Positions 37,251 through 60,344 of a stretch of DNA of 64,000 nt are shown one piece after another. The stretch's first letter is position 1. The number at the start of each line of letters is the position of its first letter. A program made the translations under genes and the position numbers. Source of the stretch: Mizuhopecten yessoensis (Eukaryota); NCBI RefSeq assembly GCF_002113885.1, contig NW_018408902.1, positions 2,701,490 to 2,765,489 on the forward strand, given 5' to 3'. The notes beneath the pieces are model-generated. The model saw nothing but the letters and a program-made list of their open reading frames with translations, made no database searches and was not told where the DNA came from.

Positions 37251-39395
37251 TCCCCTTGTTCACAAATGTCCTCAGTCTCCGATATACATCGTGTACCAGT
37301 TTTGATGTATGAACAAAATACATAGCATGTACTTACAATTGTTCATGTTAAGAAAATGATAACCAACTGGCATTAAATTTAATAATGGCCACCACGACTT
37401 GATTGGTTTGTTTGTGCTGATGTTTTTCTGAACCTTGTTTCTATGATCAATTTGTTCCGATAATTAATTTCATTAAACACTATTTTGTATAATTTATTAT
37501 ATTTGATAAGCATGCATGGTGACCTAGATAATCTTATCATTTAAATAAACATTAAACACTGATGACATGCTTCATGCCAGATGTTTATTTCAATCAATCA
37601 AATCCACCAATCTATTAACATTGCTTGTCAAGTCACTATTCAAAAACACTATTTCAAGTTACCTTCACGGTAAGTTCAGCGGGACATTCTGACCACAAAC
37701 TTGACAGATTTTAAGTAGATCTAGAGGTCAAAAAGTTTTTTTTGTTTGTTTGTCTGCTAGCAAACCTTTAAATACATACAAAATGAAAGTGGGTATCTCT
37801 CATTCGATAAATGAAACCAGCCCCGTGACTCAATTTGCATCTGATAATCCATGGTTATTAACCAATAAAAAGTATTATTTCTCATCGATTTTACAGGGTG
37901 TCTAATTGGTTTAAACACATCACATGACAGGATTATAAAACATTGAGTCTCCCTCACGTGATCCATTTTCCCTGACGATTATTCCTCTTGGAACCCCTCA
38001 AACATTATCGGACGAGTTGTCTCTCTTTGTTAAACTCTATAATGCCCTTGTGTTCCGGACGACACGACAAACAAGTACCAACAATGGCTGCGAACGGGAG
38101 ATGAAGTGCTATTATTTTTGTTTAATTTGATGTAAAATCAAAACACTGACAGTGATAGGTATTTGTAGTATATATATGCTACCAGGCCTAATGAAATAAG
38201 AGCGAACAGGTCAGTCACACCAGTGACAACACAAGAGCTCGTTACATTGCCTAATGTTGATGTATTAAGATGATAGTTGATGATACCTGAAGATTTGTTC
38301 CCCCTCAATAAATCATGTTTCCCTTGGGCTTCGTCCTCGGGGAAATATGATTTGTCTTGGGAAAACAACTCTTCAGGTCTCCCTCACACCAGGGCAATAA
38401 GTGTATATTGGAACATCGCAGATGTGGAAGCATTGCACCTAGATTGATCATCTTCCAGCTTTGTGCTGGAAAGAATTTATGTACATAGTAGGGCTCAATC
38501 ATGAAAGCAGTGGACTAAGCAGCTGGTTAAATCCTCTCTTCTCTGTTACAAATGGTGTCCATGGCCCCCTGACATAACAGTAATGTTAGAACCTGGGTTG
38601 TTGTGATGTTCGAGGGTAAACACATTTAAAAATTGGGATAGTTGTGTGGCACGTTTTAATTATACATAAGATTACACCCTTTAGCTTTGGGTGGAGGGAA
38701 CTTCCTTTTAGCTCTATCAGTAGAGCAACAGACTGGGAAGCTGTGGGTTTCCTGGTTTGATTCATAATCACTTTATTCTCTTTCCTCTGTTCCACTTCCA
38801 TGGAGAGCTATTAATTTTGGATTTTGTGTAAAGAAATGACCTTGACCTAAGTTCAAAGGCCAAGCGGTTTGATATGTTAAATTACTCAATTTACATCTGA
38901 AGAACTAAAAACATCTAGAATTATGTTATTTTGCCAGTAGCTTGTTGGCAATAGATCAAGTGCTATCATTTTTGAAAAAGAAGGCCAATTAAACAGGCGA
39001 ACATCTACTGGGGTCTCTTAATTGCTACCCTTCTATCGTTTCAATGTCTTAATCACAAGCATATATCTAAAAATGATGATCTACAACATTTATCATCTTG
39101 TCGAGTCTATCAGACTATTTATATATAGTAAGAGTAGTTTTCAGGAAAGGACTATTAACAACATAGTTTATGAGTCCTTGTAAATTTGTAATACAATTAT
39201 AATGTGTGCTGTCCAATATTTTATGTACATACATAATATGAATATTGGGATATGGTTTGCGCACAGTACTTTGCCTTGTTGAATTATATTAAAATCCCCA
39301 AGGAAAATTAAAGCTAATGTTATCAGAAAGTAAAAGACCAGGCAGATTCAGTGTTTTCCAACGTTCTGTATAATTATTTATTGTGTTATTGTAGG

Positions 39396-42300
39396 ATGGA
39401 AAATGTGTACCATGTAGAGCCAGTGAAGAATGACAAGCTTCCATTGCCTCCCATCTCGTCCCTGCTATCAGTCAAGTGTAAGAAGCCTGAATCACTCCCT
39501 CAGTATAAAAACACTCCACCAATGTTTATCCCACCGCAGGTCAAGCGTAAAAAGACTTCACCACTTTTGATCCAAACAAAAGTAGAATGCAATTCCTCAT
39601 CATCTGCACCAAAATGTGATAAAATGTTGAATTCTCCAACAGCAGGCAAAAGTAGCACATTTCCACCAATGTCTTCGCCTCCTCCCCCACCTCATCTCTT
39701 GTGTGGGCTAAGTAATGTTCAGACCTTCCAGCATAGCCCTAGCCAGGGGCAGTCAGTAGACAAACGGGGAGCACCAATCCCTGGTGCCATGGCCTCGTAC
39801 CTGAGTGGAGGGTTTCTAGACCCGAGTAGTATTGGGACCACAAACATGATGTGTGGTCCCAACTTTCAGTACCAACAGACCAGCTTTGGAGAAGTCAGTA
39901 CACTAGCCTGTCAGACGATCATATACCAGAACACTAGTATCATATCACCTAGAACAGGATTCAGATCTTCCATCTGTAACCACCCAAGTGCATGGAAAAG
40001 TAATGTTACAAATTTCAGTAGTCCTGAAACCAAAAGTTCTTTAAGAAGCAAGAAGATGACAAGTCACAACCCATCTGCATGGATACAAGATGCCTTTAAG
40101 CCTAAGGATTGCAGGCCTAGATTGATTCAGAGCAAAGTGGTAGATCAGAACAAATTCAGTTGTGATGAAGACCTAGACCAGCTGAAAGAAGCAGGACTAC
40201 ATGCAACAATTTTCGGCAGCATTCCACACAGTTCTCAACAGCTTTTGTTTGGTTCACAGAATTCACACACAGCTGATGGCACAGGTAAAGTGATCAGTAT
40301 TCCAATTGATGAACAAGGCACAGTCTCTGTAAGTTCAAAGAGACCACCAGGTGATCAGGTGACAGAAATATCTTCACAAAAATCTAAAGATATTTGTAAA
40401 TTGTATGTCACCTGTGATATAAAGGATGAAAAAGATGGATCGGAGGAATCAAACCCTAAGACAAAACCGATTTCCCCAGTCTGTCCACCTCTTCTTGCTG
40501 ATGCTAACAAGTTCAGCAACAGTTCAGGAACCACACAACAATTGGATCCAAATAAGTCTGGTTTCAATGTTCCAGAAAGTTCTGACTTCAACTTGTTTCC
40601 TTATCCAAAGATTGATGAGATTGAGAGTGTTGGATCCAATGATTTGGGTGTTGATGATGCTGAGTACCATCCAATCGCATTGCCTTTGGGATGTTACCAG
40701 TTTAATGACAGTGACACTGAATCAGATACAACCAACTATGAAGGATCACTCGGCAGACGCATGGCAAAGATGGGCCAGGACAAATTTGACCTTCACTTAG
40801 ATAAAACTTTGACATTAATGGAGTGGAGTTTAATACCTATCCAAATGGAACCAACCAACAAATCATTGTCTGATGCCGCTAGATGTTCACGGCTCGAGGA
40901 TCCACGCCTTCAACAGTCGATGGATAAAAACCAAGTCAGCAAAGAGACATGTAAGGACGTGACCCTTCAACAGTCGATGGATAAAAACCAAGTCAGCAGG
41001 GAGACATGTAAGGACTTGACCCTTCAACAGTCGATAGATAAAAACCAAGTCAGCAGGGAGACATGTAAGGACTTGACCATTCAACAGTCGATGGATAAAA
41101 ACCAAGTCACCAGGGAGACATGTAAGGACGTGACCCTTCAACAGTCGATAGATAAAAACCAAGTCAGCAGGGAGACATGTAAGGACTTGACCCTTCAGCA
41201 GTCTATGGATGAAATCCAAAAAAACAAGGAGACATGTAACGACTTTAAAAGCATTGGTTCTATTGTACCCAGAGAATTGGAATTTGAACAGCAGGAAGAA
41301 CATTCTGTTGTCGGCAATAAAAATGCTATTTGTCTGGACAAACGTATTACAGAGATGTTAGATGTCAGTTTTCTTGTGTCCAGTCCTCGAGATGATCTTC
41401 ATAAAGGATCTGAAAACAATGATATATCCCAGAGTACTGAAAATGAGAATGGCACTCCAGATAGAGAGAAAAAGAAAACATTCATAGAAATTGAAAATGA
41501 CGCTAAAAAATCTTCAGAAATAGAAGTTTTTGGAGTTTCTGGGGCACTAGTAGTTAAATCACCTGTTGGAGTAGTCTCTGAAGAACTCCTAGCTGTGTCC
41601 CGGATCAATGAGGGATCAGATGGGGTATTGACTACGACCTCTGATGTTTTATCGACCAGTGGTGAAGTTTCTGCAGACCATCAGAGCAGATCATCTTTCT
41701 GTGACACCAGTGATGCAGCCATAGGAGCACAACCAGATAATCCACTGACAAGGATTGCTACTGTTTTATCCCAGAACTTGAGTAAAACTTCCAAGGATAA
41801 AGTTGGTAAAAATGTTAAAAGGTTATCCCAAAATATTTCAAGTGCAATGCAGAAGGTGAAAGGGACGTCGGAGAACACAACTGTCGCAACTGTTGGAAAT
41901 GATTTACAAAAGCGTGAAAGTTGTATCTCCGACTCCATATCTGATACTTTTACAAAAGCTCAGATCAAAGAAGACACACTTATCATGACAATTACCACGC
42001 AGCGTAACAAAAGTAATGTTTCAACCCGTGAGAATGGTTGTACGACACCAGTCCCCGAGAAGAAAGAGTTACCTCCCCTTTGGCACGACTACAAGTCTTG
42101 CAGCGAATGTCATGTTATGTCAAGCCAAGAGAAACAACTCCTTCAGGAATCAGCAGATTTTTTAGGGGAGGATTTCAATGCATTTAGCCGAAGATCACAG
42201 AGAAAAAGAGGTGTTCCAAAAAAGCTTGAGAATTACTTCAGTGAGTGTAGGGAGGTGGCAAAGGGTTACAAAACAGCTGTCAACAAACGAAAACGGCAAA

Positions 42301-45300
42301 AAACGAGAAAGAATACAGGAGACACCTACAGTACATGTGATAGGACTGACCATGATTCTGATTGGGATATGGTAGAATTGTATCAGGATGATGTTGTCGT
42401 AGAAGAACGAAATAATTCGGCCACCGTTTCAGGAGTTGAAACAAGGAATCGAGGTACAAGGACATTTGAAAAACTTGCAAATGAGAAGTACCCAGATTTT
42501 GATATTGATGAGGAATTCCTGTTGAAATCAACCCCAAAGTGTACTAGAAATATGTTGAAGAGGTTGACAACAAGTCTTATAACTAGTTCAAATCACCAAA
42601 GGAGAACAGTAACAAAATCTCAGAAAACACTTCCAATCAGCACTACTACTGAGGTTAATACAGCTCCTTCAGCCCAAACCAAAAACATTACCCAAGGCAA
42701 CAGTGTTTCTGATGATGCCACAAGTCCTTTGCTGATTAATCCAGTGAATCTTGAAACAACCAGTGACCCACCCACTAAGGGTAACATTGGTGACCCCACC
42801 ACCCCTAGGACAACTGATCTGGGAACTGCATTAGTGAACGCTGGCCCTGTGACACAGAACTGCACCGTTTACATCACTCAGGAAGATACAGTCAAGGATG
42901 TCCAAACACAGACAAATGGACAGACAACTTGTACAAGCAATTCGGAAAGACAGAATATTTCAACCACAGATGAAATGGCAACAGTGCATGTCTCCACTGG
43001 TGAAATGAAGAGCAAATCTGCCTCAAACAAAAGAAGCGGAAGTAAGTTACAGGAAAAGAAATCTCAGAAAAGTGTGTCTCGTTCACAAGTGCCTGCAAAG
43101 AAAAAGAAAGGACGTCCATTTAAAACCCTTACTTCATCAAAGGAAGCCGCTATAACATGTGTGACTGATGGTGACATATCAGGCAATACTGGAGAAAAAT
43201 ACCTAGCAGAAGGGAATGATGCTGCAGCCACCACAAAGCTCAAATCTACCAGTAAATCTGAGGAAATTACTTCGTCATCTGATAAGAAAAAGAAAAGCAA
43301 GGAGGTAAGAAAGAATGTTACCTCATCATCAACAGGCAAGCCAAAGAAAAGCAAAATGGAAGGAAAGAAAAAGGGTGATTTACTAAGTCATGATAATACC
43401 GAGGACAATGTTCAGGCAGTTGTAGTAGAAAATGTCACACAAAGCACAGATGTGAAGAAGAAATCTAAAAATATGATTGTTTCTAATGAGGATGATGGTG
43501 ATGCTGAAAAACTGATAGGCACTAAAAAGAAAGTCCAGGGGAAAAAACAGAAAACAAAAGAGAAAGCTGATGACTCGAGCCTGTTGAAAGATCATTCTTC
43601 TCCACAAACGTCGAAAAAAGTTGATGTATTGAAACAGAAAGGTGATGGAAAGGAAACATTACAGAAGAAGAAAAAGATATTTAAAAATAGCAGTGATGGT
43701 CAAAAGAAAAAGACCAGTTGGAAACGCAAAAAAGGCTCAGATAATAGCTTGCATTCTCAATCTAAAAATCTTACAAAGAACATTAGCAATTTAGTTATGA
43801 AGAATAAGAAAAGAATACTCCAGGGTTATGCCAAATTTCGTGTGGTCACCGACCCTGATCAAGCAGCAGAACTGAAGTCCAACAGACCAACAGATTGTCG
43901 TTTCTGTAAGAAGACCATTACATTCTCTGCATTGAAGGACCATGAACGGGAGCACAAGTTCAAATGCATTCGCTGCCGCATAGTCTTTAACAACCAGGTA
44001 AGACCTTGATAAAGTTCTCGAGTGAAAACTGTCCATTATTGCCTCAATAAGATGTCCAATTTAACTGTACAGTATAGTTAAACTTGTCCCCTTAAAACTA
44101 CCTATATAATCTAATACGGATTCTGTATATATCAGAACCTGTCCATTATGACTGCCCAGATTGTATATGATATAGATCCTATATATCAAATCCTATTCAT
44201 TATGACAAAGAATACTGTATTTGACAGAGATGTTTTTTTCAACTTCAAGTACGACCAACCATACTATATGCGATACATATCCTGTTTATATCAAAACCTG
44301 TCCATTATGACAACCCTTAAATATATTGAGTAATAGAGATAAGATATCTATCAAGAAAACCCACCAATAGTGACTGATATCAATACTGTATGTGATACAT
44401 ATCCTGTTTATATCAAAACCTGTCCATTATGACAACCCTTAAATATATTGAGTAATAGAGATGAGATATCTATCAAGAAAACCCACCAATAGTGACTGAT
44501 ATCAATACTGTATTTGATATACATATCATGTTTATATCAAAACCTGTCCATTATGACAACCCTTGAATATATTGAGTAATAGAGATGAGATATCTATCAA
44601 GAAAACCCACCAATAGTGACTGATATCAATACTGTATTTGATATACATATCATGTTTATATCAAAACCTGTCCATTATGACAACCCTAAAATATAATGAG
44701 TAATAGAGATAAGAGATCTATCTAGTATACCTACCCGTAGTGACTGTGATACCAATACTGTATACAATACAGTAATCTTTATTTAAAGTTGGTTAAGTAT
44801 GTAATGGTAAAACATTAGCTCTAGAGAGCTATTGATCAGACTACCTGGTATGTGATATACTGATCCTGTATATATCAAAACCTGTCAAATATGACACCCG
44901 GTATATTTAGTGATAGAGATCAGATATAGGTTAAAACTCCTCCACTTTAACCACCTATAGTATCTGTGATACTAATCTTGTATATATTTGGAGACTGTTT
45001 ATGGTGTGACCTGTCACCCAGTCCCTGATAACAACTGATGCTAGCTGTGAGACTGTTTATGGTGTGACCAACCAGTCCCTGATAACAAATGATGCTATAT
45101 TAATGGCAAAGCAGCTGTAATACACAGTATTTATTTCTTTTCATTTTTTGTTTCTGTTTTTTCCTCTATGTGCTATATGCTTTATATAAGGGGTTGAACT
45201 ATACTGCAAAATATGTCTTCCTTTTTCTTTTGTGATCAATTTTTTCAAGGGTTTAAATACTGAATGCTCTTTTTACCTTGATGAACTGTTTTGCATAAAA

Positions 45301-48300
45301 ATCCCTATTATCAACTATCTTCTTTATTGAGGCCTTGCAAAAATTCCATCTTCTCATTGTAGAAGGAAAAGGAAAAACATTACTTCAAAAAACACAACAC
45401 CAGCAAAAAACATGGGAAGGTTTCTCAGGTGTCAAAGGTGAATGAACTGTACCACTGTATGCTATGTGAGAAATCCTTTATCAGAATCAAGACGTTCCAG
45501 CGCCATCTACATAGCAATATACATGGCTACAATCGTCACATACAGAACAGGTGCCTGTCCATGATGGGAAGTCACACTGAGCAGTCCACTCGGGCCCTAC
45601 AGAGACAGGGCAGTACCCTCCACGCCATTGGCAACGGTGACCAGGAAGGTACGTGTATATCAAAACTGATAAATATTATAACGTTGCTTTATTGTATCTT
45701 GGACAATATTGTTGTTCAATTATTACCATGGCTGACAACAGTCTTTCGGTAGCATGCAATTAAATTAGGTCATATAGAAATGTATGAAGGTCCAATTATT
45801 ATTGAGCATTGAGCCATTTCTCTAGCATTTAAAATTGTTTTCTCTAGGTCACATTGGTTATTTTTCCCAAAAGACTGGATTGAAATCTTTCAGCCTCTTG
45901 TTCTCATCTGCTTGCCCATTGTTAATTTGTTTGTAGTAAATATGATTGGTTTTCAGTTCAATGATCAGTGTTACAAATTTGAAGGAAAAGGAAATTTTGT
46001 ATGTTTCTAATAAGGTCAAATTCAAGATAGGTCATTACATTCAAACTTGCCTAAGTGATTCAAGGAACCACCAGTAAAATGCATGTCACTACAGACAAGT
46101 AATGGTCACCATATAGACTTGTGATTCATATTACTGAGCACATTTACAGTCAGTTATCAGCACCAAGATGTGTTCAACTAGCTTTCAGATTATTTAGATT
46201 ATTTTGATATTCAGTATTGTTGCAATTAACCTTAGTAAATAAAATTCATCAATAAATGGGATCACTCAAGGTGTGATTTGCATTACAATATATACAATTA
46301 TTCTTATGTAAAATCAAAACACTCATGTGTCCTTTTCTGGAGAAGAGAGAGGCCTAGATTCTGATTGTTGGCTTATAGACTGCTGGCAAAAGAAATGTGA
46401 AAAGAAGTAACCTTGACCCATACTTAAGGTTACAGGGGTCAGCTTTTTAAACCACTTAGAGGGCTTCTTCTGAAGCTCGTAAAGGCCTATTCAGATACAT
46501 GTAAATGGCCAGTAGCTTTCATGGTGTGCTACAAAGTTTGCCAAATTTAGGAACTACATTAATCCATATTCAATGTGCTGATGATAGTTGTCAAATTGCT
46601 TAAAAAATTCAAATAACTTTTTTTCTGAAGAAATGATTATGATGTAAGCATTTGTAGGCAAAGTGTTAACGCCAGTAGAATGGCATTTGAACTTATAAGA
46701 TTTCATAGTTATAACTTAATATGTCTTTTTCTAGGAAGTATTTTAATCTCTATATCTTATTTGAGGTCATTAGCAAGTGGACCTGCACAGATGTTGGTTA
46801 CTTGGCAGGTATCAGATCGCTGGCATGGAATGCTATGTACAAAGTTTGCAAAAAGAAATGACTTTGACCCATATGACTGGTCACCAGGGTCGTATTTGTT
46901 AAACATGCAAACCAAGTTCTTTTTATACCGGCCATGATTTGACTGAAGTCCAGGGTATGGAGTAATTGTGTTTGTCTGTCTTTCCGTGTTGACTACATTT
47001 TTCAGAGCATATATCTCGGCCATTGTTTCATAAATGGGAATAAAACTTTGTACATTGGTACATTGTCAAAATCGCTGGGTCACATCCAAAAATGAAGTCA
47101 CTGTGACCTGTGTTTGACTTTTAACTTTGATTTCAAATGCAGAAATACAGTTTCATACAGATTTCAGGAATACATCTTGACCGCTCTTTTGTGAATGATC
47201 ATCAAACTTAATACGTACATCACAGGAAGGCAGTGTGTCCCAAACTAAAGTGAGGTCACTGTAACCTTTGACTTTGACCTCAAGTACTAAAATAAGACAG
47301 GTTTGGACTAAAGCTTGGTTTGAAGTTGGTACCTTACGGTCAAACAACATGTCATATGATATAATTGGATCATAACCTTAATATGACCTCAGGATTTAAA
47401 TACAGCATATGCCTCCAGAGAATATCTAGGCAACCATTTTATGTACGAATATCGAAATTAGTGTGAAGGTCAGGGGATTAATTGTCTTATCTGCAACACT
47501 ATTGATATGAGAACATATATGCAGGGAGCGGGGTAATCAGTGAAGTGCATGCTTCCAAGCTAAGTCTAGTTAAGAATGAAAACACCTAAAATCATGATAG
47601 TTGGCTGCTATATATATATAGCTGGTTGGCTTCGATCTTGTTTCTTAAGTATTACATGAAGAGTAAAAATGAAAATAAAGGGAAATAAATATATATCCAA
47701 TGTGGTCCAGGACCACCATATATGTGATCAAAATAATTTCATGGAACTAACAAAAATTGCTCCAATCCTCAGAAATAAGCATTGAATATCACTTACAATT
47801 CTTGTTCAAGGTTACATTATAGATGTACTGTATAAATCGATTATTTTGTCTGCTCTTTTAATACAGTATCACCAGATGATCAGCTCATTCAGCAAAGAAT
47901 CACATGGAATGGGGCCGAGGACAAGTCACCAAAGACATGGACACTCCCAGAAAATCAGACCAATACTGAGGAGCTGAAGAAACAGCTCATCAAAACTGTG
48001 GAGCATGCTGAAGGAAGGGATACCATCAATTACTACTATCATGAGCCGGAGATCCTAGAATGGATGAAGAAACAGGAAAGCTTCTTACAGAAAATGTCTG
48101 CTCTGCCGAACTCGGACATGCATCAAAGAGCAGAGCCATATGCTGTAGTCACCAACTTCTCAATGATGAACTACCTCACCTCTGGTCCACAATGTTCCGG
48201 CATCAAATATGTCTCAGAGGAAGAAGGTGAGAGCATCCAGTGCATGCACAATAATTCTGCAGATGGCAGCACCCCTTATAGGCAAACTGATCCAGCAGAT

Positions 48301-49320
48301 GGCAGCACTCATTACACACACACTGATCTAGCAGATGGCAGCACTCATTACACACACAATGGTCCAGCCGATGGCAGCACCAATTTCATACCCAACAATA
48401 CAGCAGGTTGCAGCACCAACTGTCTTTGTGATGGTCCTGCAATGGCCAGCGCTAGCTTTGTACCACCCTTTATACAAGAAGATGGATCCCAATTCCTACC
48501 TCATGGTGGATCAATGGTTTCCTACCCAACCTTTGAACCAAGCAATACAGACACAAAGAAAACAAACAGCAGTAAGAACACAACAGAGGTAGGAGTGTCA
48601 TGCACAATGGGACAATTCGCTGTTCATGATGAATCTATGGTGTCTTCCCAGAATAACATACTGAACAACAGGTACCAGCTCTTAGCTGACCCAAGCCCAC
48701 CAGACCAGCCAATGCTGGACACATCTCGGATTCTGAACACAAGTAGTAGTGATCATGACCATTCCGACGTGGACCAGGGCCCGATGGGATGGCTCAGTCG
48801 TGCCATCCAGGACATTGAGGCTGATCCTTACTACCAAGTTCCTGACTTCCTGGACAGCCAGTCCGACCTAGACAACGACTCTGGGTTTAATGAGCATTCC
48901 GTTTCTAAGGATTCATCAGTCTTCCGTATCACAGGTACTCCATCCACATCAGAGTCTGCAGTCACTATGTATACCAGAAACTACACAGATTTGGATAACG
49001 GCCAGCAGATACAAGTCTGTGATAAAAAAGACTTAGAGACTGGTCAGGGAGCAGATACTGGTACTGTTATCCTGCCTGTGAGATGCCCAAACAGTAGCCA
49101 GTCTCGTGAGAACAGTGGTACTCGTTGTTTAGAACCGTTAGTCAGTGACACTTTGTCACCTGCGCAGGTGAGCACATCTAAACAGTGCTGCAAGTCACAA
49201 ATCAATGATGAAGTTGACAAAGAAGATCAAGAATCACAAGAACTGCTCAAACTTAAATACGCTCAAATCCTCTGTGATATTCGCAATGACGTTCTGGGGA
49301 CAAGATCTTACCAGGAGTGA
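39396..49320 (+). CDS. Large, mostly low-complexity C2H2 zinc-finger protein (~2113 aa, 3 coding exons)
   Basis: Exons 39396-43997, 45363-45648, 47867-49320, GT-AG and phase-consistent. Fingers CRFC..HEREH, CIRC..(spliced)..HYFKKH, CMLC..HLHSNIH; AT-hook-like KKKGRP; Lys-rich NLS-like region. Confidence 0.88.
40908..41243 (+). repeat. Coding 57-bp (19-aa) tandem repeat
   Basis: LQQSMDKNQVSRETCKDLT, nearly 6 copies, near-identical at the DNA level. Confidence 0.95.
44270..44760. repeat. 122-124-bp intronic tandem repeat, ~4 copies
   Basis: tgtttatatcaaaacctgtccattatgacaaccct recurs near 44281, 44403, 44527, 44651. Confidence 0.9.
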
Positions 49321-52488: not shown

Positions 52489-53205
52489 TGAATATAATAT
52501 AGTGTGCATTCTTTTCTTTTTTTGGCAACAAGTAGGGTTAGAATACACACTTTTATAACAGTTATGGACTAGAATATGGTTTATGATGGAAAATCATTTT
52601 ATTTAAATAGCAATTATATTGCTTGCGACACCACTAAAAATAATCTGAATTGTATTAAATAATGTACAAAATACACCTGAGGAAACATTTATTGTGTACA
52701 AAAGACTATAAATTATATGGGCTCATTTTGGCAAGATAATATTAATGGCACATTAACTAGCACCTTGTAAACAGGTATAACAATCATGGCACATTATTAG
52801 AGACAATTGTCGGTTGACAATAAAAAGACTCCATCGTAAGAAAGAGACAACTGGTTGACACTTAAATACACCATTAAATTAAACATTGTAGTTGATGCTA
52901 ATGATAATTGGGTTTGGAAGCCAAAACAAATTTTTAAAAAAATCACATAAACAGAATAATCACGATTCACCATCAATTTTTAAATGGATTTTTTGTTTTT
53001 TAAAGTTGACAACCAAACATGTTCATGATATATGCAGCTTTGTCCTATTTACTTTAGGACACAAAGGTAGGACAGGTTTTTAACGATTCACTAGCACTTA
53101 CATAAAATCATGCAAAAAAAATGATCACCCAATAAACTGATTTTTGGGCAAAAGTTTGAGATGATATTTTTTCTCTGAAATAAATTTCCATTGGTGATTA
53201 AACAA

Positions 53206-54018
53206 AACAAGAGGCCCATGGGCCTAAACGGTCACCTGAGTCCTACAGTATTTATTTTTGTTGTTGAAATATGTACCAATTTGAGTACAAAATAGTTTGT
53301 CAGGACCATGAGCTGATCATTCCTAGACCGAGTTTCAGTTAAATCGGCCAATTAGAACTTGTTTTTAAGTTTGAAATAGTTTTTTCAAAATGGCGGCCGT
53401 GTCGGCCATATTGGATTTCTGATCGACCCGAAAAATATCAACATTTTGTTAGGACCATGAGTCGATCATTCCTACAAAGTTTCAGTTCAATCGTCCCAGT
53501 AGAACTTGACTTTAAGTTTGAAATAGTTTTTCAAAATGGCGGCCATATTGGATTTCTGATCGACCCGAAAAATAACAACACTTTGTCAGGACCATGAGTC
53601 AATCATTCCTACAAAGTTTCAGTTCAATCGGCCCAGTAGAACTTGACTTTAAGTTTGAAATAGTTTTTCAAAATGGCGGCCATATTGGATTTCTGATCGA
53701 CCCGAAAAATAACAACACTTTGTCAGGACCATGAGTCAATCATTCCTACAAAGTTTCAGTTCAATCGGCCCCGCAGAACTTGACTTTAAGTTTGAAATAG
53801 TTTTTCAAAATGGCGGCCGTGGCGGCCATATTGGATTTCTGTTCGACCCGAAAAATAACAACACTTGATCAGGGAGATGTCAGTAACCTTCCCATGAAAT
53901 ATTAATGAAATCCCTTTGCCAGTATTTCAGCTTAAGTTGAAAATGTAAAATGTTAACGGACGACGGACGACGACGGACAGCAATAGGTCACTTGAGCTAA
54001 AGCTCAGGTGACCTAGAA
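53206..54018. mobile_element. Non-autonomous Helentron-like element (HINE) with central ~137-bp tandem array
   Basis: aacaagaggcccatgggcc..ggtcacctgag start; ~4 repeats (53581 to 53718 period); (ggac/gac)n microsatellite; terminal hairpin ggtcacttgagctaaagctcaggtgacc. Confidence 0.82.
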
Positions 54019-54548
54019 ATGCAAAGACAAAATTATATCTATATATAAGTTACTAGCCTGCATATTTCCTTGACGGATATTCTGTATAATAGGCAAACAA
54101 TCAACACATAATGTATTCCAAAAACGTAACAAGTAAACAGAAGCTTTACGACTAGTATTAAAACTGGATTTCTTAACGTATTTAAAAAAATTCCTGTAAA
54201 AATTAATTGACATCATTTCAGACAAATTTGCTTTCATATTACACTTGTGATATATGACACAATACATATATATATATATATATGAATCGATGTATAACTA
54301 TAAATCAACAGTTAACTAGCAACCTGACTTTTTTGACATATTTAGGATAAAGAACACTGGGGATATATATAATAGCACCGATAGCTGATAAATCTTTAAC
54401 AAAAAACTTCCCACATAATTAAGTTATTTCAAGTAGGATTAACATTATCATTTACATTGTATGTATCAGTATTGAGATTTATAAGTCTCCAAAACAATAT
54501 ATAAAATTTTAGCAGTGAAAAGTTTTTAACCTCCATGTGACAGTAAAA

Positions 54549-54648
54549 ATATATATAAAACAAAACACGAAGGTTAAATTTCGCTAGCACTTTCGCCCAT
54601 CTTGGGGCTCTTCAGGCAATTTGAAATCATGTTTTGTTTTATATATAT
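54549..54648 (-). ncRNA. Minimal type-I hammerhead ribozyme motif
   Basis: Minus strand: AAAUUGC-CUGAAGA-GCCC(caagau)GGGC-GAAA-GUGC-UA-GCGAAAUUU, enclosed by a ~22-bp stem (auauauauaaaacaaaacauga / ucguguuuuguuuuauauauau). Confidence 0.72.
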
Positions 54649-55027
54649 GAAATTTTCGAGTAAAAATATAAAATGAGTCTACAAAATATTCAAACTAGAG
54701 CATGTCCTGTCCACCTTCCTGTGGAGAGGTATTGTACCTGGTAATTACTTTTAACAACATGATATAGTATATATATAATAAGTGATTTGTATACAGGTGT
54801 GCTAAAAACTAAAAAAAAAATCATATGAAATAGTAAGAAAAAGGATTAAAAAATTTCATATTCAACCGATTCAGTCACTTCCCCGTTGTATTACTTTTCA
54901 GGAAACTGGTGGCTGTATCAGCAAGATTCTTCTTAACTTTGTCTTGTATAACAACAGATATGTGGGAAGATGACCTCCTCTTCTACTGTAGGGGAGACCA
55001 GGGTGTGGGAATCAGCTATCATCTGTT

Positions 55028-58000
55028 CTACTGTAGGGGAGACCAGGGTGTGGGAATCAGCAGTCGTCTATGTCCTCCTCCTCCTTTCGCTTGGTCAGCT
55101 GAATCGGAAAAAGAATAACACTTCAACCATCATTGCTGACTGATTCTGATTTATATACCTACATACATTGTACTACATAGAGGACTATTATTATTTCACA
55201 TCTCACCATTGTTTGTATTAAATGTAGTATGGTCTAGTCATTTTTCACATTTATCAGTGATTGTCTAGTGTATATGGTCTGGTATTATTTCATAGTTTAC
55301 AGTGGTAAACCTTTTTTTGTTTAATACAGTGTTTAACTCGTTCACCCCTGAAGACACATTTGAACTCTTCCAATTCAAAGGTTGGAATAGTTCATAATGA
55401 AATTTCAGGGGTGAATGAGTTAATGTCATCACAAGTTCCAAGGTCATATGAGGATGGGTGTCCAAGGAGACACTGCCAAACAGAAAGAAGATAAAGAACA
55501 ATAGAAATAGTGGTTCTAAGTATTTGAATATGGACAAATTATCATTTTAGGTTTCTTTATAGTCCCCTTAGCAGATGGCCCAGTAAAAATTCCCAATTCT
55601 GCACATAAGTTGCCTCTTATTATGACATTAACCCTTTCACCACTGGAGACCAAAATGGACTCGTCCAGATCAATGCATGGAAGAGTTAACTACAGTTACA
55701 AAGGGGTGAAAGGGTTAAATGGAATACTTTCCCCCAAACTTATTCTGTGTACACATGTATTAAACAGTAGTAGGTTCTTGAATCATGTCATTCCAGTGAT
55801 AAACCCATTCTCTCTATTATTTGGGTCTTGTATCTTTTTTTATTCTCTGCATTTTTAGAAGGGGTCATACAATTATCTGGAACTGAGATCTATTTCCATT
55901 CCGGAAAGTCCTTCATGAAATAAGTTTGATGAAAATTCTAACCATGATTTCAAGGCACTTTCAGTGTAACATTCTATAACAGTTCATTATTCATCTCTTT
56001 AAACAATGAAGCAAAAAGCATTTTATCAAACGAGTATGGATCCTTTAAATAAATAAGCAGCACCGTGAAACTATTTTATAATGGATTGCTACAGAATATT
56101 TGGTCAAATTGTGACAAACAGCAAGTTTACTCTACCTTTATTGTAGCCTTTGATCTGGTTTTCTACACCCTGCTGAGCAGAGGAATGGAACCACAGCTGG
56201 TATCCTTAAATAACAATACATGTAATTCAATGGTGAGCTTTTCTAAAATCAGTTTAGGAATTCCTAACACGATTCCATCCTTTACATTCAAACCCTTGCG
56301 AGTAAACATTACCTAATATTTCTTGATAAGGATTTATTAACTTCATAAATAGAATTATCCACAAAATTACTGATATATAAACCATAAAAAATGCTTCATT
56401 ATATTGGTATAACATATAGACACGTACTACAAAGTATCATTATTAACAATCATGCATGTTTGTTTTAATTTTGGTTTAAGACAATTATCATCTATACTGT
56501 ATAGGCAAGTATACAGATATTTAATGATACTTATATATTTTCATTTTCTAACCTGTGTCAGTTGGTCCTAGAATACTTTGAAAGGTACCAAGCAGCTTGG
56601 CATCACCCTTGCTGGCTGTAAATTGGTGACCTGTTCCTTGGTTCATCGTGTCCAGCTCATAAACACCTGTAAAGGAAACAAAACTCCTACCTGAGGGTTA
56701 CATTTATCAATCTTTATATTCATTAATAGGAACAGGTGATATACATACTTGACAAATTCCTGATGTCAGGCTGAACAAGATTGATGTCCGACATTCTGAT
56801 ATGTTATAGATGTATCTCTGATGTCAAACAGGACAAAATTGATGTCTCTGACATTCTGACATGTTATAGATGTCTCTGGTATTCTAACATGTTATAGATG
56901 TATCTCTGATATCAGACTGGATAAGATTGATGTCTCTGACATTGTGATTATTAGGTTATATGTGTATCTCTGATGTCAGACTGGACAAGACTGATGTCTC
57001 TGATATTCTGACATGTTATAGATGTATCTCTGATGTCACACTGGACAAGATTGATATCCCTAACAGTGTGCAGGTTAAGATGTACCTCTGATGTCAGACT
57101 GGACAAGACTGATGTCTCTGACATTGACATGTTATAGATGTATCTCTGATGTCACACTGGATAAGATTGATGTCTCTGACATTGTGATTATTAGGTTATA
57201 TGTGTATCTCTGATGTCAGACTGGACAAGACTGATGTCTCTGATATTCTGACATGTTATAGATGTATCTCTGATGTCACACTGGACAATATTGATATCCC
57301 TAACAGTGTGCAGGTTAAGATGTACCTCTGATGTCAGACTAAATCAAAATTACTGTTCCTACAGAATGGCGGTTATATATTAAACTTACCTCTGAGATCA
57401 GGCTGAACGAGATAACAGTCCCCGACAGTTTGGAGTAACATGTTTTCCTGACGAGACATCATTGGTAATATCTTGCTGAAGTAACTACTGATCCAGTTAG
57501 GGTCGTCAGCCAGAGCTTGGCGCACTTTTGCCCGCTGATTCAAATCATCTGGTGGATAAAAAACAGAGACTTGTATCAATGTTGTACATTGTACTATCAA
57601 AAGCATTGTAGAAATGTTTGTGGAAGGGACAAGTGCATGCATATAGGTTTACCCATGTCCATCTGTAACATTCCAAAAGAACTAACATGCATCTCCCTCA
57701 CTAACAAACCTGTTAATCACCCTTTTGAATGGTAAATTGATATCAGATTAATTAATTAATTTGAAACATAAAGGAAAATAAAAATCACAGGTAGAAGCTA
57801 AATCAGGCTAAATAAAAAAAAAATTGTGTTACTGCCAACCCACCTACCCTAGAATTTTGTGTCTATCCTAAATTTTTGTATTGGCATTTAGTGATATGCA
57901 CTGTTTAAGTCAGAATTCCTGCTGTATATATGCAGAGTAAAAACCTTTTCCAAAATAAAAATAAATTGCCTACTACCTATACCTAACCTATTTTTTCTGA

Positions 58001-60344
58001 GGATGATCCTGGAAACACAAGTAAAAAAAAAATCCCTCATGCATCTTGGGTTGTTTACCATATTCCCATATGTGGACAACATCATTCAAGCCACCAATTT
58101 CGCTGACCCAGTAACCAACCAGACGCGAGTGAGCTGTTCTCAGATGAATCCACTCTTTGCTCAGCTCAATGAATGGTTTCATTTCCTTTGGCCAAATTTG
58201 ATAGATGCGCAGTTCATAAAGCTTGTCAAGCCCATTACTTGTGCTGGTGGTGGAGCTGTGCCGGTTGAGCTTCCTTGGCAACAGACTACACAATGGGGTC
58301 TAAAATATAAGGAAAGACAAGAACTCTGTGAACAAGTGCACATAATATTATCAACTAGTTCAATATTTTCATTTGTCAAATTGTCTGTGAGCACACTTGG
58401 TTTTAACTATTATTAGCCACTTGACCTACAGACCTACACCAAATATTCTGGTATCATGAACAAGAGGCCCAGAGGGCCTTTATCTCTCACATGGATATTT
58501 AAGCAACTATGACAAGATATTTTAATGAAATATATGTTAATACAATTGTACTGAAAATTGTGGCTCTGTCTCACTAAAGGATACATCCTTNGGGGGGGGG
58601 GAACTGGGATGGATTTTAAAGATGTATCCTTATTTCACCATATAGGACCCTGCTCCTAGGGGTGGCCACACCCTTCATTTCCACCTTTGCCCAATGATGC
58701 TCTACACCAAATTTAGTTAAAATCCTTCATTTGTGCATATGTAGAAGGATTTTATATATATTTACCTCAAACTGCCCTATTGGGCTCTGCCCCTCTGCCT
58801 TTGGGGAGCATACCATCCCTTTATAAAAACAAATTTAGTTCAATTTTCCAAGGATGATCCAGACAAAATTTGGTTAAAAGCAATCCATTTTTATGAAAGG
58901 GATAGGATCTTAAAGACTAATCCCTATTTCCCCTGGGGGTGGCCACACCCTTCATTTTCATTTGATTCTCTACACCAAATTTTGTTAAAATCCTTTATTC
59001 ATGCAATGTAGAAGGGTTTTAAATATTTACCTCAAATTGCCCTTATCGGGCTCTGCCTTGGGGAAAATGGGAGGGCAGACACACTCTCCATTCACATAGA
59101 ACTGATCAATGACTTTACTTTACTTGAGAATGCACTCCACGAAATTTGGTTAAAATCCTTCATTTGTACATTAGGAAAAGGATTATAGAAATTTATCCCT
59201 ATTTCCCTCGTTGGGCCTCACCCCTCTGCCCCTAAGGGGCTTAGGGTTAAACCCTCCGTTTATGCACAACTACTTCTCCTTTAACCACAGATGCTCTACA
59301 CCAAACCCTCAGGGCCTTATATTGAATTGTGTTCCCTTTGCCAAAAGATACTCCAGAACAAATTTGGTTAAATCCCTCCATTTGTACAGAAAAAAAAAGT
59401 ATTTACAGCTTTATCCCTATTTCCCCTGTTGGGACCCACTCGTCTGCCCCGAAGGGGCTAAACCCTCCATTTATACACAACTGAGCCCCCTTTAACCAAG
59501 GATGCTGCTCTAGACCAAATTTTGTTAAAATCCTTCCATTTATACAGGAGGAGGATTTTATAGATTTTTCCCTGTTGGGCCCCACCCCTTCACCCAAGGG
59601 GATTTCCCCTATCGCATTGGGCCCCACCCCTTTGCTTTCAGGAACACCCACAGTTTATACAAAATTGATTTTACTTTGCCTAAGGATGTTCTAGCCCTAA
59701 TTTAGTTAAAATTCCTCAAAAAGCTCCATGGTCTTTGTACACTTTCACTCTGAAGGGAAATTATATATTTTTTTATCCCTTTAAGGCCACAGAAGAAGGA
59801 TTTTAAATATAATAAGCGATCTAATTAGGTCCGGTATCATTAATTAATTTACTAAGTAAGTCCTAAGCTTGTGCCATCACTCATTTATTGACTACAGATC
59901 TGGTAATGAAGTCCTGTGTCAATAACAGTTATCACTCAGTCAAACTGTTGAAGTTCTATATGAACTAATGTTTATCACATAAAATGGTTTGTAATTTTTT
60001 TCACAAGAAAATATTTTCCAAAGCATGTAACTGTTTTGTTAAATAGCATGCATTAGATACTGTAATTTAAAATCAAAAACGAAATTTCCCGAAGTGGCCA
60101 TTTTGTTTGTTGGTTGAAGAATCGAGCCGACCGAAATTCGGTCATCAACGATTGAGCATGACCCATGACCATGCAATGATGCATGAACTTGATGAAGTCA
60201 GCAGTTTTGTTGTATTATTTGCATCCGATAATTTCACTTTTAACTCTACAAAGCTTTGATACTTTGATAAAGAGTGCATTTTACCCGTAAATTCAGTGCA
60301 GCTCTACAAATGCCATTTATCAAACTTCTAGACTGCATGGCCAT
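55028..60344 (-). CDS. NIPSNAP3A: Protein NipSnap homolog 3-like, 6 exons, 237 aa
   Basis: Exons 60285-60344, 58059-58299, 57390-57548, 56553-56666, 56136-56204, 55028-55098 (714 nt, phase-consistent). Motifs LYELRIY, GYWVSEIGGLNDVVHIWEYDDLNQRAKVRQAL, GVYEL, LLIPTPWSPLQ*; basic mitochondrial-type leader. Confidence 0.92.
56760..57340. repeat. Intronic ~58-66-bp tandem repeat with 240-bp higher-order duplication
   Basis: gatgtatctctgatgtcagactggacaag units; 56941-57100 is identical to 57181-57340. Confidence 0.9.
58459..59800. mobile_element. Older HINE/Helentron-like element with degenerate internal repeats
   Basis: Starts aacaagaggcccagagggcc; repeated ccctatttcccc..ttgggcccc..caaatttggttaaaatcc blocks; right end unclear. 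Confidence 0.6.

Follow-up and report, generated by a model that had tools for sequence, protein, structure and literature searches.

Does the compact hammerhead ribozyme that lies behind a NipSnap3A-like gene of the scallop Mizuhopecten yessoensis serve that gene, or is it carried along as part of something else? The motif was noticed in a 64,000-nt stretch of genomic DNA (called the window here), and the earlier note described it as a possible orphan ribozyme that cuts the NipSnap mRNA, perhaps only when two transcripts pair. In this work, we arrive at a different answer, to which we assign a probability of about 0.88. The motif belongs to the 140-nt tail end of a high-copy Penelope-like retrotransposon lying behind the stop codon of the gene, and the hammerhead, which probably lies within the 3' UTR, is likely to be a passenger that mostly stays uncut.

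The Hammerhead Motif

The elements that characterize a type-I hammerhead, namely the CUGANGA core, GAAA and the UH triplet, are all present (Table 1), and the minus-strand position given for the core in the earlier note was confirmed both from the sequence and with a structural descriptor. That descriptor found one site in the 64-kb window, 54581..54619, and none in 30 of 30 shuffled versions. The outer helix of about 22 bp, also described previously, is formed by arms (54648-54627 and 54570-54549) that agree at 21 of 22 bases, and it is mainly because of these two inverted 22-nt arms that the 100-nt segment 54549-54648 reaches a fold z-score of -7.37. Rfam, which had been proposed as the means of identifying the motif, gave no match at gathering score anywhere in the window. 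With E values up to 10, the sole hammerhead row was HH9 (15.8 bits against a cut-off of 52, E=1.3); this weak row and the hairpin look-alikes of microRNA families that accompanied it were set aside as chance matches.

Table 1. Coordinates of the hammerhead, the insertion and the host gene in the window
Feature	Position	Strand	Basis or remark
Minimal type-I hammerhead motif, whole	54581..54619	minus	sequence and descriptor match
Stem I	UUGC 54619-54616 and GCGA 54584-54581	minus	4 bp; sequence
CUGAAGA core	54615-54609	minus	sequence
Stem II, GCCC/GGGC	54608-54595	minus	4 bp; sequence
GAAA	54594-54591	minus	sequence
AGUGCU quasi-palindrome (helix III)	54591-54586	minus	sequence
A17	54585	minus	predicted cut between 54585 and 54584
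5'-truncated pseudo-LTR end of a putative Neptune-type element (hammerhead, short end near 54547, tail)	54510..54626	minus	
Penelope tail of about 40 nt, between the two preferred 3' ends of the family	54510..54546	minus	
Inverted partial copy of 22 nt (+48..+70)	54627..54648	plus	pairs with 54549-54570, 21/22
NipSnap3A-like host gene, six coding exons	55028..60344	minus	tblastn with scallop NipSnap3A-like proteins; Pfam NIPSNAP
NipSnap3A-like exon starts	about 60344, 58299, 57549, 56667, 56203, 55098	minus	tblastn
NipSnap3A-like stop codon	55030-55028	minus	413 nt before the hammerhead core
Probable 3' UTR holding the insertion	54030..55027	minus	X1 contigs overlapping from the spliced coding contig; distal end beyond the mapped part

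A Dispersed Family and Its Parent Element

The 25-nt core occurs exactly at 65 places in the genome (the window and 64 others) and, with up to 2 mismatches allowed, at a minimum of 258 places; the reversed control gave 0 in both searches. Perfect cores thus make up 65 of the 258 recognizable ones. A DNA search of the scallop's own genome gave 51 matches from the 40 candidates scored out of 372. The 3' end of the copies is fixed, lying about 107 nt past the core and often followed by TA runs, and their 5' ends vary. Animal genomes are known to contain such remnants of Penelope hammerheads in hundreds or thousands of scattered copies.

The coding part of the element is found elsewhere. At one locus (L029), the core is preceded, at a distance of about 305 nt, by a 139-aa ORF end with a GIY-YIG domain (PF01541, 28.8 bits against a cut-off of 22.6). 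The longer copies carry a CX4CxxC linker of the Neptune type, and at both L029 and L047 a linker of the CX2-5CxxC form precedes a C-terminal endonuclease (EN) that has a CxxC between GIY and YIG. By these linker and EN motifs, and not by a tree, the window family would be classed among the Neptune-type Penelope-like elements (PLEs). In five of the eight closest EN loci (L031-L038), the flank that was fetched contains the hammerhead region, downstream of the EN and on its strand. In a sixth EN locus (L048+L076), a broken pLTR-RT-EN-pLTR element that is 89% identical to L046 over 2,485 nt, the motif region lies beyond an inserted LINE fragment, and the remaining two of the eight show no motif in the fetched flank.

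The finding of at least 258 dispersed core copies, linked to a Penelope element with reverse transcriptase (RT) and GIY-YIG domains, removes the ground for calling the ribozyme an orphan, because the window motif is one of many dispersed Penelope remnants, which is the first half of an outcome that the earlier note had itself named as counting against its proposal, the other half being absence from orthologous UTRs. The lack of a Penelope ORF or a second hammerhead, from which the orphan status had been argued, holds within the window, and both are present elsewhere in the genome. The assignment to minimal type-I hammerheads of the Penelope kind stands.

The RT fragment of the window family is broken and falls below the Pfam cut-off (RVT_1, E=0.0027, 17.9 bits against 29.6), and none of the eight EN loci examined yielded an intact ORF of this family. 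A sister family with 58-60% EN identity has an intact 830-aa frame in which RVT_1 and GIY-YIG both exceed their cut-offs. This Neptune-type sister (L047, L052, L053, also L039-L045) looks recently active: its frames measure about 820 aa, its copies are 99% identical, its EN has many equal-scoring matches, and it carries its own pLTR hammerhead about 110 nt past the stop. Hammerhead-like motifs of other families, with a palindromic helix III, were also seen at L042:2235 and L024:2423 (both minus), where they adjoin copies of these PLEs or nest inside them.

Structure of the Insertion

The insertion in the window, 54510-54648, is composed of a direct tailed copy (-11..+109 in family coordinates) and an inverted arm corresponding to +48..+70. 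Over 121 nt, the direct copy is 80% identical to the 3' end of the RT- and EN-bearing element L046, and it stops at the fixed 3' end of the family. The 3' ends were surveyed at the first 30 of the 65 exact-core places, which represent 29 loci. Half of the direct copies (15/30) end at +102..+112, among them the reference copy L076, cut at +112; another 13 end at +68..+75 and the last two at +40/41, so that two clusters separated by about 40 nt account for 28 of 30 ends. An inverted partner is present at 7 of the 29 loci, and at six of these loci one tailed arm is paired with one short-ended arm, as in the window.

Truncation at the 5' side, an inverted 5' partial copy and a tail on one arm are hallmarks of PLEs. 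An inverted 5'-truncated copy and a tail of 30-40 bp on one end are described as typical of these elements (Craig et al., PMC8557442), and Frangieh et al. (PMC11167929) report that in vitro the tail spans the interval between two internal RT start sites. Because the window copy has the long-plus-short pairing of this known structure, its outer helix is a by-product of insertion and not a designed stem. Inspection of the AT-rich flanks by eye revealed no target-site duplication. The Penelope origin of the insertion is thereby carried by four observations: family membership, the link to GIY-YIG and RT, the two discrete 3' ends and the inverted arm.

Published Penelope biochemistry allows a most likely course of events to be proposed. 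The protein of a Neptune-type element would have nicked AT-rich DNA behind the NipSnap stop, and reverse transcription would have begun at both of the internal sites between which the tail lies. A first cDNA, started at the long end and halted just past the hammerhead, would have given the direct copy; a second, started at the short end and only 22 nt long, would have been joined in inverted orientation. The insertion has most likely drifted since then and is probably transcribed passively.

The Host Gene and Its Probable 3' UTR

The NipSnap3A-like gene has one genomic match. Over the exon compared, it shares 84% identity with its closest named relatives, which are scallop proteins. The hammerhead lies on the same strand, 413 nt past the stop codon (55030-55028), in agreement with the distance of about 400 nt first given. 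As was also noted at first, neither AATAAA nor ATTAAA occurs in the interval from the stop to the motif. A candidate signal proposed near 52690 does exist, as AATAAA at 52693 (another follows at 52603), but it is not the nearest, since AATAAA at 53256 comes earlier; the variant poly(A) signal TATAAA is present at 54643.

Four sequencing runs were aligned to 54030-56740. X1 consists of contigs, RNA by guess; X15 is DNA-like; X21 and X24 are raw RNA reads. In X1, the last two splice joints of the gene are both visible, single-copy intron bins are empty, and overlapping contigs lead from the coding end to 54030. Its depth along the gene end is 33.5, then 21.8 (contig 55010-54575), then 11.5 (contig 54604-54030). 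Both of these contigs cross 54585, which means that uncut RNA exists, although X1 contigs show no strand, ends or level. In the DNA-like run X15, a break occurs at the same point as that between the X1 contigs. Over the UTR, X21 and X24 reach a depth of only 1-5, their reads differ from the window at 3-5 positions each, and nothing below 54485 is covered. At this depth, too sparse for cleavage to be judged from such divergent reads, no listed read ends lie at 54585. Among the runs that a search listed as containing this segment, none is RNA according to its record. Fourteen presumed-RNA contig sets from 6 studies contain 75-90% of the words of 54050-55110, of which X1 alone was counted as evidence, and two further rows of the run search, at 0.04, gave no evidence. 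The placement of the hammerhead in the NipSnap 3' UTR, as originally suggested, is therefore probably right, on the strand-blind contigs of one spliced run.

Several other features of this region were observed. X21 and X24 are labelled with the same species, and the differences of their reads from the window (54750-56670), three of which fall in one 117-bp exon, would fit a divergent strain, a hybrid or a run with a wrong label. A 45-bp tandem duplication (54972-55061) repeats the last nine NipSnap3A codons and the stop at the start of the UTR. An intronic tandem array at 56760-57377 is built of 58-60-bp units that resemble the 3' end of the preceding exon and give weak tblastn matches to the same residues as that exon end. 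The last NipSnap intron contains two short, very-high-copy, MITE-like repeats (55333-55424 and 55628-55700); at the first of them, read depth rises to thousands, with sharp loose ends. Further down the possible UTR, a repeat-like insert at 53250-54020 holds a 137-bp tandem array and has AATAAA 53256 at its edge, and at 39318-49320 a convergent gene on the plus strand has a 1,563-aa open frame with 15-aa internal repeats and C2H2-like zinc-finger ends.

The falling depth in X1, through 33.5 and 21.8 to 11.5, together with the fading of X21 and X24 reads around the element and the TATAAA at 54643, could point to a passenger with an incidental, non-catalytic effect, in which the 22-bp hairpin or the weak TATAAA would shorten part of the transcripts. 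The raw depth of 1-5, the divergent reads and the absence of any listed pile-up of ends speak against it, and plain coverage decay fits equally well; we regard such an effect as unlikely, though it fares better than the other alternatives considered below.

Does the Ribozyme Cut?

If the family ribozyme had usually cut its RNA before reverse transcription, the 5' ends of copies could be expected to record it. These ends were mapped at all 65 places with an exact tail motif (L084-L148), in coordinates where the predicted cut is at +31. Twelve ends lie beyond -25, 20 at -25..0, 14 at +1..+27, six at +29..+33 (two of them a local duplicate) and 13 further down. Since 46 of the 65 tailed copies reach upstream of the cut, most templates were copied uncut. 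There is no clear peak at the cut site, with about 0.9 ends per base at +29..+33 against about 0.6 per base over -25..+66. This agrees with two published studies, in which uncut RNA is the main template and cleavage needs the PLE protein (Frangieh et al., PMC11167929), and in which a metazoan minimal hammerhead has no monomer activity and low dimer activity (Cervera and De la Pena, PMC4209133).

As a separate observation, 27 of the 65 ends crowd at -19..+3, the upstream edge of the hammerhead, and nine of the 12 copies that pass -25 continue to about -115 or beyond. The position of this crowding suggests a stall of the RT at helix I, or a transcript start, and not a cleavage site.

In the folded window copy, stem II forms with a pairing probability of 0.94-0.98, and stem I with 0.18-0.32, a value that is high for the family: in 29 of 30 other copies, each folded in its own flanks, the first stem I pair has a probability of at most 0.04. 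The 22-nt inversion does not pair with the hammerhead but encloses it. In the minimum-energy fold the core is mispaired, and keeping stems I and II closed around an open core costs an extra 2.4 kcal/mol. Within the monomer, helix III consists of 2 bp around a 2-nt loop and is not stable; between two molecules it becomes a 6-bp duplex with two G-U pairs worth -3.8 kcal/mol, against -8.3 kcal/mol for the commonest palindrome of the family. The AGUGCU sequence cannot be put down to private decay of the window copy, as it is found in 5 of 30 family copies and the same column is split within the subfamily. The indirect evidence thus leans against much cleavage of NipSnap mRNA: with a weak, intermolecular-only helix III and no partner hammerhead within the gene, such cleavage would probably be rare.

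The state of decay was assessed among 52 distinct copies, 19 of which were assigned to the subfamily of the window copy on the basis of the sequence that follows the cut. At 13 of 113 columns (11.5%), the window copy departs from the subfamily majority, and 15 other subfamily copies with a well-aligned tail differ at 8-17 columns, three short-ended or indel-rich copies being left out. One of the differences turns a C-G pair of stem I into U-G; at another, 54514, runs X1 and X15 show the ancestral base. Judged from these alignments, the divergence is ordinary for the family. The 25-nt core has no changes, for which the chance at 11.5% divergence is about 5%, a figure weakened because the copy was noticed for its intactness and because a quarter of the recognizable cores (65/258) are perfect.

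It is against this background that a regulatory role has to be weighed. A copy of the same Penelope origin could be active and kept, damping NipSnap in a concentration-dependent manner similar to that of Clec2: the inverted arm would pre-close stem I, two NipSnap transcripts, or one and a family transcript, would pair through helix III, and the cut would remove the poly(A) tail. The core is intact, the motif lies on the strand of the gene and is probably transcribed, stem I is more favoured than in nearly all other copies, X1 depth halves across the element, and the genome contains hundreds of potential partner hammerheads. The intact core, the favoured stem I, the depth step from 21.8 to 11.5, the missing coverage below 54485 in X21 and X24 and the six of 65 ends near the cut all count against the passenger reading, as do the RT fragment below the Pfam cut-off and the lack of an intact ORF in the EN loci. 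Nevertheless, the copy is no more diverged than is usual in its family, its helix III duplex is weak and uncut RNA is present; the depth step coincides with a contig break also seen in X15, and contigs are blind to ends and levels. Moreover, with so many copies in the genome, an intact sense-strand copy in some UTR is expected by chance. We therefore consider a kept regulator improbable. Still less probable is the stricter version in which an inversion-made, pre-closed hammerhead was kept as a switch that cuts NipSnap mRNA only upon helix III pairing with another such transcript or with Penelope RNA. Cleavage of the NipSnap mRNA is probably rare and not under selection, and we infer that the passenger hammerhead is mostly inactive at present.

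The least probable alternative is a MITE bounded by terminal inverted repeats or a monomer of a non-LTR retrozyme (tandem 150-400-nt repeats that give circular RNA). Type-I hammerhead retrozymes are described for a mussel (PMC7229834), and the inverted arms resemble terminal repeats, but the window has a single hammerhead and no tandem array over it, the 5' ends are variable and run into the EN ORF while the 3' ends are fixed, and the inverted arm is internal, differs between copies and is followed by 40 nt of element; both identities are thereby largely ruled out.

Relation to Known Systems

The closest match is with the PLEs. Neptune-clade elements (Craig et al. 2021, PMC8557442) share the C-terminal GIY-YIG with a CX2-5CxxC linker, whereas the examined scallop family copies are all broken and the window holds no coding part. 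The Anolis Poseidon element PAc (Frangieh et al. 2024, PMC11167929) shares two internal RT start sites that bound the tail downstream of the pLTR hammerhead, and uncut RNA as the main template; it belongs to a different clade, and the scallop ends are deduced from genomic copies alone. Metazoan pLTR hammerheads (Cervera and De la Pena 2014, PMC4209133) likewise have a conserved core, a short helix I and a tiny palindromic helix III suited to dimers; most of them are dispersed singly as remnants of truncated PLEs, and some form pairs on opposite strands. The scallop motif differs from those described there in its 4-bp stem II without an extra nucleotide between 9 and 10.1 and in its place in a host 3' UTR, where its activity is putative.

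Non-LTR retrozymes (PMC7229834; bioRxiv 10.64898/2026.07.22.740005) occur in bivalves and carry a type-I hammerhead related to those of PLE pLTRs; unlike them, the scallop motif lacks tandem monomers. The rodent Clec2 hammerheads (Martick et al. 2008, as reviewed in PMC2950038) also lie on the sense strand of a 3' UTR. According to that review, they are discontinuous, occur in homologues of several mammals and lower reporter output by 80%, whereas the scallop motif is compact, belongs to a high-copy transposon family and has only a putative regulatory role. Among the titles and abstract openings found, none reported a mollusc UTR hammerhead regulator.

Significance

If the regulatory reading were true, a transposon ribozyme would have been domesticated as a dimer-dependent mRNA switch, a case not found in the literature searched. 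As a passenger, the window copy matters little in itself. Its family lends genomic support, in a scallop, to the pair of internal start sites that was demonstrated in vitro with the anole element, and it shows that most templates were copied uncut.
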